This document shows, one piece after another, positions 20,677-60,433 of a stretch of 64,000 bases of DNA; the first letter of the stretch is position 1; each line of letters begins with the position of its first letter. Source of the DNA: an uncultured Acidimicrobiaceae bacterium (GTDB lineage: Bacteria > Actinomycetota > Acidimicrobiia > Acidimicrobiales > Ilumatobacteraceae). The notes beneath the pieces are model-generated. The model was not told the DNA's origin and ran no database searches. It saw nothing but the letters and a program-made list of their open reading frames with translations. The stretch covers positions 2,419-66,418 of the forward strand of contig CAIZMV010000034.1 in the NCBI GenBank assembly GCA_903934195.1, written 5' to 3'. Made by a program: the position numbers and the translations under genes.

Positions 20677-22572
20677 CTATTGCGCTGAAGTGATGTCGCG
20701 CAAGAACTGTTCAATTTCAGCGCGATCACGTGTGCGGGTCATCGGCGGAAGAGCCGCGATAAGCGTTCTCCAATAACCGGCTGTTGCCAGGCGACGGTCA
20801 AGAACCGCTACAACACCTTTGTCTTCTGCAGTGCGAATCAGTCGACCAGCAGCTTGTGCAAGTGAAGTGGCTGCAATTGGTAAATCGATTTGGCCGAATG
20901 CAGTGTCGCGGCCGACTGCCTCGCGTCGAGCCTCAAGAAGTGGGTCGTCTGGACGTGGAAATGGAAGTTTGTCGAGAACTACAAGAGACAAGGTTCTTCC
21001 TGGAAGATCGATGCCTTGAAAAAAAGCCTGTGAAGCAAATATGCATGAACTTTCATCTGCCATGAACATTTCGATGAGTTTCTGTCTCGGATAATCGGCA
21101 GGGCTGAGGATGGGCACAGTAAGTCGTTCACGCATTGCGGCGGTGGCCGCGTACAACGCCTTGTTGCTTGTGAACAGCGCCAATGTGCGACCACCCGCTG
21201 CCGTAATCAGCGCTTCAAGTTCGTCGTGAACGAATTCGGTGAAGTTTGGAGCATTGCGATCGGGAAATGTGGGCGAGCAATACAGGCGCGAGTTGCGCTC
21301 GTAGTCAAACGGACTCTCAACCGACAGGATCTCTGTGCCTTCAAGTGGAAGCCCAACACGTTCGGGAAGAGAAGCAGGAATAGTGGCGCTAGTGAGCACT
21401 GCTGCAACGTTTCCCCACACTGAACCAGACATGACTTCACCCACGTGAAGGGGACTGATGCGTAATTGCGGACGATCGGGAGACCCCTCAACGTAGGCAA
21501 CGTAGCCCTGAATGGTGCCGAGTGCGAGGTCAAGTGCCTCTGCAAGTCGCGTTGCCTGAGTCTGTGCCCGGTAGCTCTTTTGTTGCGTTGACTCGTTGTC
21601 GGTTGTGATGCCGCGCAGTGCACCAAGGATGGTGTTGATTTCGATTCGGGCAAGTGCGAGTGGTTCCGTAACTGACGTGGGCATCGGATTGGATATTCGC
21701 TGACCGGACATTGGAGTCAGTGCCTGTGTGAGACGAATGCCCTGAGTTTCCAAGGCGCTAGTGACAGTGGGGTCTGCAATGACTTTTCGTACTGCTGACG
21801 CTAGGGAAGTGAAACGACCAGAGCCCAGTTGTACTCCGACGGTGTCGCTCATGACAGATTCCAATTGGTGCGCTTCGTCAAAAATGACTACTTCATGTTC
21901 GGGAAGGAGCGAACCACCACTAGCAATATGCAGGCCATAAATATGAAGATTGACAACAATTACGTCTGCAGCAGCTGCAGCGTCGCGAGCTTTTTCGGCA
22001 AAGCAGTCGTGTCCAACAGGACATTTTTGTTTTCCGGGACATTCGTCACTGCTGACTGAGACTGCGATGCGAGCGCGTTCACTTGGAACCTTTGGTAGTT
22101 CCTCAAAGTCGCCGGTACGCGTTTTGCCTGCCCATTTGACGATGGATTCAATTTCGCGTTTTGTAGGTCCTGAAACTTCTTCGAATTCCAACTGCCCTGC
22201 GGTTTCACTGAGTTCGTTGATTCGTTGACGACAGACATAGTTGTTGCGTCCCTTGATTACTGCCCACGAAAAATCAATGCCGAGATGCTTTGAAAGTAAG
22301 GGAAGGTCATTGCGGTTCAGCTGATCTTGCAGCGCCTTCGTGGCGGTGGCAACAACGGTCTTCTTGCCGTTGAGAAGAGCAGGAACGAGATACCCGAGCG
22401 ACTTGCCGGTACCTGTTCCCGCTTGAACAATGATGGATCGGCCAGCGGCGAGTGTCTCAGCAATGGCATGTGCCATGTCAATCTGGCCTTGTCGCTCTTC
22501 GGCGCCTTCGAAGGACGATGTGACGGTGCGTAGGGCCTCAATAGATGCGTCGCCAGCAATGGAACGACTCAT
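20677..22572 (-). CDS. dinG: ATP-dependent DNA helicase, DinG/XPD (Rad3-related) family
   Basis: Walker A QAGTGTGKSLGYL. DEAH box (VIFDEAHQLE). Cys cluster (CRQR...CPGKQKCPVGHDC) consistent with an Fe-S domain. Its start overlaps the uppS stop (ATGA). Confidence 0.85.
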   Translation of the reverse strand: MSRSIAGDASIEALRTVTSSFEGAEERQGQIDMAHAIAETLAAGRSIIVQAGTGTGKSLGYLVPALLNGKKTVVATATKALQDQLNRNDLPLLSKHLGIDFSWAVIKGRNNYVCRQRINELSETAGQLEFEEVSGPTKREIESIVKWAGKTRTGDFEELPKVPSERARIAVSVSSDECPGKQKCPVGHDCFAEKARDAAAAADVIVVNLHIYGLHIASGGSLLPEHEVVIFDEAHQLESVMSDTVGVQLGSGRFTSLASAVRKVIADPTVTSALETQGIRLTQALTPMSGQRISNPMPTSVTEPLALARIEINTILGALRGITTDNESTQQKSYRAQTQATRLAEALDLALGTIQGYVAYVEGSPDRPQLRISPLHVGEVMSGSVWGNVAAVLTSATIPASLPERVGLPLEGTEILSVESPFDYERNSRLYCSPTFPDRNAPNFTEFVHDELEALITAAGGRTLALFTSNKALYAATAAMRERLTVPILSPADYPRQKLIEMFMADESSCIFASQAFFQGIDLPGRTLSLVVLDKLPFPRPDDPLLEARREAVGRDTAFGQIDLPIAATSLAQAAGRLIRTAEDKGVVAVLDRRLATAGYWRTLIAALPPMTRTRDRAEIEQFLRDITSAQ

Positions 22573-23258
22573 GAAGTAACGCCAGTGGCGTATGCAGCAA
22601 GAGCGAGGTCGAGTTCGTCAGCATCGAAATCCGGCCAAGTACGTTCGGTGAAGAACACCTTGCTCCCAGTGATCTGCCACAGCATGAAGTTTGAAATTCG
22701 TGATTCTCCTGATGTGCGTACCAGAAGATCAACTGACGGCATCGAAGGGTCATACAGATTTTCAGAGATGCTGTCGGCGTTAACGGTTCCGGCGGTCATA
22801 GCGCGTTTTGTTGCACGAACTAATTCAGCGCGACTTCCGTAATCAAAAGCCACGGTGACCACAAGGCCTGAATTGTGTTCCGTATCGGCAATTGCCTTGC
22901 GAATGGCCTTTTGAACATACACAGGTGTTCTGGCACCAGGTTCAGCAAAAGGACGCCCGATCCATCGGGTGCGGGCATTGTTTTCGTTCATCTCATTGAT
23001 GCGGCCAAATAGTTTGCGATGGAGAGACAAAATATGGCGGACTTCGGTTCGCGGACGCACCCAATTTTCTGTGGAGAATCCGAACACAGTGAGCCAGCCG
23101 ACTGATCTGTGGGCACATGCCCTAACCACCCCAGCGAGGGCTTCTTCACCGGCTGTATGGCCGTCTGTGCGGGGCAGGCCCTTGCGACTTGCCCAACGGC
23201 CATTGCCATCCATAATGCAGGCCACGTGGATAGGAAGGGGCTTCGTAGACACATTCAT
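22569..23258 (-). CDS. uppS: cis-prenyl (undecaprenyl/decaprenyl) diphosphate synthase, catalytic, lacking the C-terminal RRFG tail
   Basis: HVACIMDGNGRWA, FSTENW and RTSGESRISNFMLWQ motifs are present. The protein ends ...LALAAYATGVTS*, immediately before where RxRRFG(G) normally follows. Confidence 0.9.
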   Translation of the reverse strand: MNVSTKPLPIHVACIMDGNGRWASRKGLPRTDGHTAGEEALAGVVRACAHRSVGWLTVFGFSTENWVRPRTEVRHILSLHRKLFGRINEMNENNARTRWIGRPFAEPGARTPVYVQKAIRKAIADTEHNSGLVVTVAFDYGSRAELVRATKRAMTAGTVNADSISENLYDPSMPSVDLLVRTSGESRISNFMLWQITGSKVFFTERTWPDFDADELDLALAAYATGVTS

Positions 23259-23321
23259 GGCATCTGCACCCTAGTTTCTCCGTGCGCCACATGGGAGAGC
23301 ATCGCGTTACGAGGTTGGTGC

Positions 23322-23957
23322 GTGGGAGACTATTGCGTGCCCCAAAGTGCTTTGCCAACATTCCCCGGACTTGACCACGTGGTCGTTGCAGGCGGCACCC
23401 CTGCTCAGTGGGCCGAGATGTCAACGTCAGATTGGACTCAACGTCTCGATGCTCTGGCTGCTGGCGTGAAGAGCAGTGGAGCTCACTGGGTGACCTTGTT
23501 GCCGCACCATGGGCAAGAGTTATCGACAGAAGAAGCTGTGAAATTCTCAGAAAAGTTGTTGAGTACCAGCAAAGTTGTGCTTGAAGACGTTGGACACTGT
23601 GAACGGTTTGTTTGGCATCGCACTGCGAAACAAAGCATCATCGTTGACCCTTCATCAGACGGACATCGCAGATTTGCCTCGGTAGTTGAGTCAATGCGTA
23701 AACAGGGAGTTGACCCGCAATCTGTAGACGAAGATTTATTGACAGAAGCGCTTCTGGCTCCTGCAAATCAAGATGCAGATTTGGTTCTGGTGCTTGGTCC
23801 GCCAGACCGCATGCCTGAATCAATGGTGTGGGAATTGGCGTATTGCGAAATTGTGTTTATCGATCTCGATTGGTCGGCTTTCACTGCTAATCATTTGGAA
23901 CTTGCTATTGACGACTTCAATCGGCGTCACAGGCGTTTTGGCGGGCTCGATTCGTGA
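23322..23957 (+). CDS. Degenerate UppS-like (cis-IPPS fold) paralog that retains the RRFGG C-terminal tail
   Basis: By-eye alignment to UppS: HVVVAGGTPAQWA vs HVACIMDGNGRWA; DLVLVLGPPDRMPESMVWELAYCEIVFIDLDWSAF vs DLLVRTSGESRISNFMLWQITGSKVFFTERTWPDF. The C-terminus is AIDDFNRRHRRFGGLDS. The GTG at 23322 is preceded by GAGG (7-nt spacer). GTG at 23337 is an alternative start. Confidence 0.7.
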   Translation: MGDYCVPQSALPTFPGLDHVVVAGGTPAQWAEMSTSDWTQRLDALAAGVKSSGAHWVTLLPHHGQELSTEEAVKFSEKLLSTSKVVLEDVGHCERFVWHRTAKQSIIVDPSSDGHRRFASVVESMRKQGVDPQSVDEDLLTEALLAPANQDADLVLVLGPPDRMPESMVWELAYCEIVFIDLDWSAFTANHLELAIDDFNRRHRRFGGLDS

Positions 23958-24673
23958 CCACGTATCGCGACAACGCTGTCGTTTTGGGCTCCTACAAGTT
24001 TGGCGAAGCTGATCGTGTTGTTGTTTTGTTGACACAAGAACACGGAAAAATTCGAGCGGTTGCAAAGGGTGTGCGCAAGACAAAGTCTTCAATCGGGGCC
24101 CGATTAGAGCCAATGAGTCATGTTGACGTTTCTCTGCGTTCGGGCAAGGACTTAGACACTGTCTCTGAAGTACGACTCGTTCACACACACTCGGCTCTGC
24201 GCACAGATTTTGATCGGCTTAATCAAGGCCTGTCCATGTTGGAAGCGATCAATAAGTTGACACCTGATCGCGAGCCAGTGCCGCATTTGTACGAAGTGTT
24301 GTCTCGGGCTCTGCATGCACTGAACGAGAGGCACTCGCCACTAATGCTCGGTGCTTTTTATTGGCGACTTCTCACGATTGAAGGCAACGGGCCACAAATT
24401 GACGAGTGTGTTCGATGTGGTGAGGCGGGAAACATCGTGTCCTTTGATGTGCTTGAAGGCGGCGGTCATTGTTCCGCATGCCGATCTGGGGTGCCCATCT
24501 CATCGCAGGCCCTTGAAATTTTGCGGATGGTGCTCGGCGGTCGAATGAATGAAGCGCTTGCACTGCCAGAATCAGGAGCAGTGCATGAAGTCAGTCAATT
24601 GGCGATGGAAGCAATGGAATCTCACCTTGAACGGCGCTTGCGAAGCCTCGGAGTGTTCGACCGCCACTTGTAG
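23954..24673 (+). CDS. recO: DNA repair protein RecO
   Basis: N-terminal OB-fold region (RDNAVVLGSYKFGEADRVV). Zn-finger CVRCG...HCSAC. Its start overlaps the upstream stop. Confidence 0.9.
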   Translation: MTTYRDNAVVLGSYKFGEADRVVVLLTQEHGKIRAVAKGVRKTKSSIGARLEPMSHVDVSLRSGKDLDTVSEVRLVHTHSALRTDFDRLNQGLSMLEAINKLTPDREPVPHLYEVLSRALHALNERHSPLMLGAFYWRLLTIEGNGPQIDECVRCGEAGNIVSFDVLEGGGHCSACRSGVPISSQALEILRMVLGGRMNEALALPESGAVHEVSQLAMEAMESHLERRLRSLGVFDRHL

Positions 24674-36097: not shown

Positions 36098-36180
36098 GCC
36101 CGAGTGGCGGAATGGCAGACGCGACGGACTCAAAATCCGTTGCTCGAAAGGGCGTGTGGGTTCGAGTCCCACCTCGGGCA
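36098..36180 (+). tRNA. tRNA-Leu (anticodon CAA), class II with long variable arm
   Basis: Manual fold: acceptor GCCCGAG/CTCGGGC, anticodon stem ACGGA/TCCGT, loop CTCAAAA, T-arm GTGGG-TTCGAGT-CCCAC, discriminator A. CCA is not encoded. Confidence 0.88.
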
Positions 36181-36207
36181 CCCAGGCAATCCATACACTG
36201 AAGATGT

Positions 36208-60346: not shown

Positions 60347-60433
60347 GTCGAAGTGGCGAAATAGGCAGACGCACCGGCTTAAGGGGCCGGCGCCCGCAAG
60401 GGCGTGGGGGTTCAAGTCCCCCCTTCGACACCA
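60347..60433 (+). tRNA. tRNA-Leu, class II, anticodon reads AAG in a manual fold; CCA encoded
   Basis: Acceptor GTCGAAG/CTTCGAC, D-stem GCG/CGC, anticodon stem CCGGC/GCCGG, loop TTAAGGG (anticodon at 60381..60383), long variable arm, T-arm GGGGG-TTCAAGT-CCCCC, discriminator A, CCA. Confidence 0.85.

Follow-up and report, generated by a model that had tools for sequence, protein, structure and literature searches.

Can two neighbouring bacterial genes—one encoding a cis-prenyltransferase that has kept its active site and ends without the C-terminal RXG motif, the other encoding a relative that has kept the RXG motif and lost its active site—together specify a single enzyme? The question is raised by a divergent gene pair in a 64,000-nucleotide stretch of DNA from an uncultured Acidimicrobiaceae bacterium (a freshwater actinobacterium of the Ilumatobacteraceae; contig CAIZMV010000034.1 of assembly GCA_903934195.1), hereafter the window, which has a G+C content of 51%. 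The proposed catalytic subunit, a tail-less UppS of 229 aa, is encoded on the minus strand (22569..23258), and its proposed accessory subunit, a dead, non-catalytic paralog 206 aa long, on the plus strand (23337..23957). In every cis-prenyltransferase studied, to our knowledge, the RXG tail crosses the dimer interface and binds the diphosphate of isopentenyl diphosphate (IPP) in the active site of the partner chain.

We conclude, with a probability of roughly 0.7, that the pair is an independently evolved bacterial heteromeric cis-prenyltransferase. Motifs, fold, conservation, selection and strict co-occurrence are what the analysis shows. The original prediction, made from this DNA alone, had proposed a bacterial two-subunit cis-prenyltransferase, and every comparative test that we ran at the level of sequence and model favours it. 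The two-subunit design is known from humans, yeast and some archaea and is not yet described in bacteria.

Complementary motifs in two neighbouring chains

UppS matches the PF01255 profile at 215.8 bits (cut-off 27; E = 7e-64) over profile positions 1–212 of 219 only and passes the equivalog threshold of TIGR00055 uppS (196.1 bits; cut-off 109.55). The catalytic motifs that had been read in it are all present: the Region I catalytic P-loop DGNGRW (aa 17–22; 23193..23210, minus strand, as for all coordinates in this gene), Region III FSTENWVR (aa 61–68; 23055..23078) and the Region V IPP-binding motif RTSGESRISNF (aa 181–191; 22686..22718). Acidimicrobiia metagenomes and metagenome-assembled genomes (MAGs) supplied 78 distinct pairs with both genes complete, the sample for all pair counts given here; DGNGRW and FSTENWxR occur in every paired UppS and RTSGExRxSNF in 77. 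The closest solved relatives are the Thermobifida fusca (T. fusca) dodecaprenyl-PP synthase 7CPN (E = 4e-47), the UPPS of B. subtilis and M. luteus, and Rv2361c, while the short-chain enzyme Rv1086 matches at an E-value of only 2e-25.

The chain ends in ...LALAAYATGVTS, 18 residues past WPDF, which is where the RFG of E. coli UPPS (R242-F-G244) begins. Its short, variable C-terminal end and stop codon (22569..22625) hold no RXG, and its TGA overlaps the ATG of the adjacent dinG-like gene as ATGA, so that both the position of the stop and its fusion with the dinG start were read correctly at the outset. Among relatives these ends run to 13–24 aa without conservation of sequence, and an R.G motif is found in none of those from the 78 pairs and in none of the 120 top database orthologs, all of them close.

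The plus-strand neighbour had been called UppS-derived, and this is confirmed by its score against PF01255 (47 bits; gathering threshold 27) and by alignment to UPPS with both HMMER and hhalign. The PF01255 match covers profile positions 131–219 only, which is the C-terminal half. HMMER matches the last 90 residues, RRFGG among them, to residues 157–245 of E. coli UPPS, setting ...VWELAYxEIVF...DDFNRRHRRFGG of the paralog against ...LWQIAYAELYF... of the E. coli enzyme; hhalign, run with the profile of the paralog family against UppS, returns a probability of 99.65% (E = 4.9e-25) over E. coli residues 47–247. The catalytic motifs have been replaced, as predicted: Region I has degenerated to HVVVAGGTPAQWA (aa 14–26; 23376..23414, plus strand, as for the following coordinates), with substitutions at the catalytic Asp, Asn and Arg, while PHHGQE stands at the position of FSTENW and VLGPP at that of RTSGE. 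DGNxRW, SxEN and RTSGE are absent from the paralogs of all 78 pairs. What has been retained is an interface segment, VWELAYCEIVF (aa 164–174; 23826..23858), spanning the betaE–betaF linker and betaF, and the C-terminal RXG tail RRHRRFGGLDS (aa 196–206; 23922..23954).

One detail of the gene required correction. A start at about 23322, giving a gap of 63 bp between the two genes, had been assumed; the open reading frame (ORF) does open at GTG 23322, while the likely start is GTG 23337, so that the gap measures 78 bp. In four relatives the upstream VGD/VGE codons are followed by a stop codon, GTG 23337 is preceded at 7 nt by a conserved GGGAGA, and most database homologs are 206 aa long.

AlphaFold2, given an alignment of 23 sequences, modelled the paralog with confidence (mean predicted local distance difference test score, pLDDT, 86.5; predicted template modelling score, pTM, 0.84), placing strands betaE at residues 149–153 and betaF at 171–175. 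Only residues 1–9 and 203–206 are disordered, the latter with pLDDT <50 in this monomer. A Foldseek search of the PDB with the model returned catalytic cis-prenyltransferases, mostly UPPS, as all of its top 50 matches (probability 1.0; template modelling score 0.53–0.62). Hidden Markov models (HMMs) therefore place both proteins among the cis-isoprenyl diphosphate synthases, and the paralog models with the fold of that family; these were the HMM and structural comparisons proposed along with the original prediction.

The paralog is not a member of the NgBR/Nus1 family, its nearest relatives in sequence and structure being bacterial UPPS. Its profile matches in the PDB down to E = 0.007 are 27 catalytic cis-prenyltransferase sequences, mostly bacterial UPPS, and include neither NgBR nor Nus1, chains of both of which were present in the library searched. 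No N-terminal membrane anchor is apparent, residues 10–200 of the model forming the cis-prenyltransferase fold, in an assessment that included no dedicated transmembrane prediction. The family is sizeable: a word-indexed search yielded 346 clusters at 90% identity (E ≤ 0.001) and an exhaustive search 42 clusters at 50% identity (E < 1e-30), almost all of 180–215 aa, without catalytic motifs and ending in R-x-RRFGG. Database entries label these proteins ‘undecaprenyl diphosphate synthase family protein [Ilumatobacteraceae bacterium]’ or ‘hypothetical protein [Acidimicrobiia / Actinomycetota bacterium]’, so that dead subunits now pass under the name of the synthase or under none.

The tail is the most conserved part of the paralog. 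A comparison of 40 sequences, the most distant at 29% identity, leaves G20, W25, D148, W165, E166, Y169, E171, V173, R197, R199, R200, F201, G202 and G203 as the sole invariant residues, which fall into two blocks, the RXG tail and the segment of the betaE–betaF linker and betaF; RxRRFGG never varies. Of 23 paralogs at 54–84% identity, 22 end in the same 20 residues, HLELAIDDFNRRHRRFGGLDS, and the remaining one differs by a single I-to-L change. A chain that has no active site gains nothing from a tail that binds IPP, and the invariance of the tail here therefore argues that it serves the active site of another chain. Neither UppS nor the paralog combines RXG and catalytic motifs on one chain, as a self-sufficient homodimeric UPPS does.

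Co-occurrence, selection and the dimer interface

Loci were retrieved through the paralog—17 from genomes and 80 from metagenomes, plus two very diverged ones from contigs encoding paralog homologs. In public collections the closest sequences come from MAGs of Ilumatobacteraceae (the freshwater acIV group of Acidimicrobiia), with up to 98% identity over the paralog. Wherever a locus extends far enough upstream, it carries a divergent UppS as a complete ORF without RXG, and a catalytic, tail-less UppS faces a dead, tail-bearing partner in all 78 pairs, the co-occurrence for which the original prediction had proposed a survey of relatives. The two genes are always divergently adjacent, with uppS and then dinG read in one direction and the paralog and then recO in the other. 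Identity to the window ranges across the pairs from 36 to 100% for the paralog and from 64 to 100% for UppS. RR[FY]GG is found in each paired paralog (78/78), and in 76 of them precisely three residues come after it. Three MAG records (L007, L013 and L020; CAMDLK01, CAMDVC01 and CAMDBY01) carry an Ilumatobacteraceae-type locus under the title ‘Bifidobacterium breve’, an evident taxonomic mislabel.

Both genes are under strong purifying selection. Pairwise against the window, with dS up to saturation, the ratio of nonsynonymous to synonymous substitution rates (dN/dS) is 0.02–0.06 for UppS and 0.04–0.15 for the paralog. With paralogs down to 36% identical, the arrangement is old and stable, which gives no support to the alternative suggestion that the pair might be a captured evolutionary intermediate.

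These observations also bear on another explanation of the missing tail, namely that UppS stops early through a faulty assembly or a frameshift, next to a pseudogene that is decaying after duplication. Such an artefact has nothing to recommend it except that a bacterial UppS lacking RXG is odd a priori. Set against it, independent public assemblies contain the identical 229-aa protein in 72 indexed blocks, with the same gene order in the contigs that we read; all UppS orthologs stop at the same place, with no relic of RRFGG downstream of the stop in any frame; and the paralog ORF is intact in all loci, evolves under constraint and has a confident fold. The UppS stop is genuine, and we regard artefact or decay as exceedingly improbable. 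The pseudogene and assembly-error reading was rejected on recurrence in assemblies, the shared stop, purifying selection and intact ORFs.

The two chains divide a second motif between them. Canonical UPPS carry WQ-x-AY-x-E-L-x-F at the dimer interface (W207...Y211...E213 in E. coli), and AYxE is kept in the tail-bearing UppS sequences of our alignment. In the window UppS the corresponding segment, canonically WQIAYAELYF, is altered to WQITGSKVFF (aa 194–203; 22650..22679, minus strand), placing G198 at the position of E. coli UPPS (EcUPPS) Y211 and K200 at that of E213. Paired UppS proteins have G at the former position in 65 of 78 cases and K, R or H at the latter in 68, never E or D, while the paralog always keeps WELAYxE, that is, Y and E at the positions of Y211 and E213. 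Human DHDDS reads WQTSHSCLVF, with the Glu lost, against PWHIRLTEIV in NgBR, where it is kept (both checked against the PDB sequences); as aligned, the division of AYxE between UppS and the paralog mirrors the SHSC/LTE pattern of DHDDS and NgBR. A role for EcUPPS E213 was not found in the literature searched; a basic residue on the catalytic chain and a Glu on its partner may favour hetero- over homodimers.

Aligned with the UPPS of E. coli and T. fusca, the tail-less UppS clade also shows a conserved insertion of about five residues (IGRPFxExGARTP), which lies in the window at 22930–22959 (UppS aa 101–110, RPFAEPGART) and might touch the accessory subunit.

Gene order and the origin of the pair

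The pair sits at 19.8–26 kb of the window in the order era (+), a DinG-like helicase gene (−), uppS (−), the PF01255-related paralog (+), recO (+) and glyS (+). Two of these neighbours serve as synteny anchors: the helicase gene (20677..22572, minus strand; DEAD and Helicase_C_2 matches), which lies downstream of the catalytic UppS and is kept beside it across loci, and recO (23954..24673, plus strand; RecO_N and RecO_C matches), which is coupled translationally to the paralog by a GTGA overlap and lies directly 3′ of it in essentially all loci. The 78 bp between the divergent genes (23259..23336) are conserved and presumably hold shared promoters and 5′ leaders. Relatives in which synonymous coding positions have reached saturation (dS > 1) still agree here at a column identity of 82%, and preservation so far beyond that of synonymous sites in the flanking genes suggests shared regulatory or leader elements. 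No Rfam family matches this region, and a scan for the sigma-70 consensus gave two weak hits only, both within the flanking coding regions. Elsewhere, Rfam and ARAGORN place the sole RNA genes of the window, two for tRNA-Leu (CAA and AAG), at 36098-36182 and 60347-60433, unrelated to this locus.

How the two copies are related was judged by positional orthology from a more distant organism (locus L107; GlyS 65% and RecO 40% identical), as the long branch of the dead copy would make a tree unreliable. There dinG faces, across 81 bp, a uppS that is followed by recO and glyS. This uppS (L107:1440-2177; P0347) encodes a canonical protein of 245 aa with DGNGRW, RTSGE, AYSE and RRFGG, and overlaps recO by GTGA, as the window paralog does. 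As a canonical uppS occupies the same site with the same coupling, the paralog is the positional descendant of an ancestral recO-linked uppS, and L107 looks like the ancestral state.

Three loci in Acidimicrobiales MAGs, with GlyS 69–72% identical, carry something else at the recO-linked site: dead homologs (L104:8001-8735, L108:10001-10705 and L023:359-1042; P0342, P0351 and P0330) of 227–244 aa, more UPPS-like than the paralog, lacking DGNGRW and ending in an RRFGG or RRYGG tail. The dead homolog is always followed in these loci by an ORF of 66–120 aa, recO, a radical-SAM gene and glyS, with no uppS adjacent, so that any catalytic partner it has would be encoded at an unlinked site. In L104 and L108, as in L107, dinG faces the recO-linked cis-prenyltransferase gene directly or across one gene, without a catalytic uppS between them.

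This synteny suggests an inverted duplication of uppS followed by a division of labour. The ancestral uppS would have lain upstream of recO, and an inverted duplicate lacking its 3′ end would have been placed in front of dinG; the extra copy in the window, the catalytic UppS, ends exactly at the dinG start codon. A duplicate truncated at its 3′ end would have worked only when paired with the full-length copy that lent it a tail. The site of the full-length copy, which would itself then have received no tail, would have been free to decay, leaving only the tail and the interface in place.

Other departures from the canonical gene were met along the way. An unrelated organism encodes, within a polysaccharide-type cluster (an epimerase, Bac_transf, a glycosyltransferase and a MACPF protein), a protein of 246 aa (P0348; L109:8001-8741) that lacks a Region I motif, is canonical in its C-terminal half and has RRFGG as its tail; it may be another, independent dead-UppS accessory protein. 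Two predicted proteins from the database are RecO/UppS fusions, P0325 and P0338, one joining a RecO N-terminus to an end reading ...RRRFGGLDQ and the other the C-terminal half of UppS to the C-terminus of RecO; they are probably frameshifted or mis-called genes at the uppS–recO junctions of other assemblies.

A proposed heteromeric enzyme, rival readings and known counterparts

In sequence and fold, the pair shows the features that define the heteromeric class: a catalytic chain without RXG, and a partner of cis-prenyltransferase fold with degenerate Regions I–III, retained interface regions IV/V and a conserved RXG. Cis-prenyltransferases can dispense with neither Region I nor RxG, be the two on a single chain or divided over a pair (Grabinska et al., 10.1101/139675). 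In EcUPPS, R242 binds the IPP diphosphate and the G244A mutant does not complement, and the G238A mutant of GlcisPT is virtually inactive (10.1101/139675). The interface of human DHDDS/NgBR consists of alpha5, alpha6 and the betaE–betaF linker, with the accessory tail crossing into the catalytic site, and ‘transverse’ interactions of this kind are also seen in homodimeric cis-prenyltransferases; homodimers of DHDDS, which lacks RXG, have a kcat about 400-fold below that of the heteromer (PMC7573591). Given the defects of the two Gly mutants and the slow turnover of DHDDS homodimers, a homodimer of the tail-less UppS is expected to be a poor enzyme.

We infer a physical complex, complementation in trans, a product and a housekeeping role. 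UppS and the paralog would form a heterodimer through the canonical UPPS interface, and the tail of the dead subunit would reach into the active site of UppS, so that each heterodimer would have a single functional site. The enzyme would make a polyprenyl-diphosphate carrier lipid, of medium or long chain in view of the closest solved relatives of UppS.

The two proteins might instead have parted ways, UppS acting as an autonomous, RXG-independent homodimer and the dead paralog doing another job as a regulator, a scaffold, a lipid-binding protein or in some recO-linked capacity. The low activity kept by DHDDS homodimers without RXG is in keeping with this, as are the dead, RXG-bearing homologs next to recO and without a neighbouring uppS in L104, L108 and L023, and the conserved stop–start overlap of the paralog with recO. 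That coupling is ancestral, however, being present already on the canonical UppS of L107, and EcUPPS G244A and GlcisPT G238A are non-functional. Independent roles also leave unexplained why the tail and the interface segment are invariant in a chain that has lost its active site, and why loss of the UppS tail coincides with a tail-bearing neighbour in 78 of 78 pairs. We consider this division into separate functions unlikely.

Several points nonetheless weigh against a heteromeric enzyme. Adjacency is not universal, as L104, L108 and L023 demonstrate, and the dead protein could act in some separate role. Evidence for a physical complex is indirect and consists of strict adjacency and the complementary split of motifs. 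An RXG-less catalytic subunit such as DHDDS does retain some homodimer activity (PMC7573591). The loci were found through the paralog, and the converse, that each tail-less UppS has a partner, was checked among close relatives. Finally, a second, tail-bearing cis-prenyltransferase may exist elsewhere in the genome, the T. fusca enzyme for one using Z,E-farnesyl diphosphate (Z,E-FPP) from a separate short-chain cis-prenyltransferase; were this so, the pair need not be the sole or the housekeeping enzyme, and the heteromeric reading would stand.

This last point leads to a reading in which the pair is a true heteromer yet not the synthase for undecaprenyl or decaprenyl phosphate (Und-P/Dec-P), a canonical uppS elsewhere doing the housekeeping while the pair makes a specialised polyprenyl. 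Many Actinomycetota do have two cis-prenyltransferases, Rv1086 and Rv2361c for example, and the part of the genome inspected was the 64-kb window, in which tblastn searches with three queries (UppS, the paralog and E. coli UPPS) brought up no other cis-prenyltransferase. Yet the pair occupies a conserved era–dinG–recO–glyS housekeeping locus, where a distant relative has a canonical uppS. Its UppS passes the TIGR00055 equivalog cut-off, is nearest to synthases of medium- and long-chain carrier lipids and far from short-chain Rv1086, and evolves very slowly (dN/dS about 0.03). A specialised product is, in our judgement, quite improbable.

A more far-reaching version of the heteromeric reading we hold only tentatively, at a little under even odds. 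It would have a lineage of Acidimicrobiia that includes the abundant freshwater acIV Ilumatobacteraceae make its essential cell-wall carrier lipid by an obligate heterodimer. The enzyme would have arisen independently of DHDDS–NgBR, through inverted, 3′-truncated duplication of a recO-linked uppS and reciprocal degeneration, with RXG and the Glu equivalent to E213 passing convergently to the dead chain; in related Acidimicrobiales the subunit genes would be unlinked.

If the pair is what we propose, an independent bacterial split enzyme would make the heteromeric design a recurrent evolutionary outcome of a cis-prenyltransferase dimer that supplies its tail in trans. It would also offer a datable, synteny-resolved case of duplication and reciprocal loss, with ancestral, adjacent-split and unlinked-dead states all found in extant Acidimicrobiia, and a small, soluble, anchor-free model of activation by an accessory subunit, relevant to disease mutations in human DHDDS/NUS1.

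How, then, does the pair compare with what is known? Reviews from 2025 and 2026 describe bacterial cis-prenyltransferases as homodimeric, that of 2026 extending this to all those characterised, in agreement with the original prediction; they assign heteromers to eukaryotes and to certain Euryarchaeota, with the archaeal system as the origin of the eukaryotic one. In the literature searched we found no report of a bacterial heteromeric cis-prenyltransferase and nothing on UppS in Acidimicrobiia. Homodimeric bacterial UPPS (E. coli, T. fusca 7CPN, Rv2361c) share the fold and catalytic motifs of the 229-aa chain, and their C-terminal half aligns residue for residue with the paralog, RRFGG included; Region I and RXG stand together on each of their chains, whereas in the pair they stand on separate ones, with AYxE divided as well.

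Among eukaryotes, human DHDDS/NgBR and yeast Rer2/Nus1 resemble the pair in having a catalytic chain with Regions I–V and no RXG. Like the paralog, NgBR and Nus1 are pseudoenzymes of cis-prenyltransferase fold that have lost Regions I–III, kept the interface and complete the active site of their partner with a C-terminal RXG; in DHDDS/NgBR, too, the Glu at the EcUPPS E213 position is gone from the catalytic chain and kept in the accessory one. The differences are that the pair is of independent origin, the nearest relatives of the paralog being bacterial UPPS; that the paralog appears to lack the N-terminal membrane domain of NgBR/Nus1 (again as judged without a dedicated transmembrane prediction); that UppS simply ends where DHDDS is extended at its C-terminus by a helix-turn-helix; and that its two genes lie side by side, in divergent orientation, within a bacterial housekeeping locus. 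POC1 of Paramecium is likewise a short (162 aa), highly diverged accessory chain with a conserved C-terminal RXG, whose G161A mutation abolishes activity, although CPT1/POC1 is eukaryotic, belongs to the NgBR lineage and is encoded by unlinked genes.

The archaeal heteromers are a further counterpart. A single archaeal example had been cited in the original prediction, a count now out of date, as several are reported: M. mazei MM_1083/MM_0618, M. acetovorans MA3723/MA4402 and A. fulgidus Af1219/Af0707. Going by their descriptions, they are, like the pair, prokaryotic and soluble and combine a UPPS-like chain without RXG with a second chain that supplies it, NgBR/Nus1-like in archaea; archaeal heteromeric cis-prenyltransferases make glycosyl carrier lipids in the C50–60 range. 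Where the archaeal enzymes are, according to the literature, the source lineage of the eukaryotic system, the pair described here appears to have arisen from local duplication of a bacterial uppS at recO.

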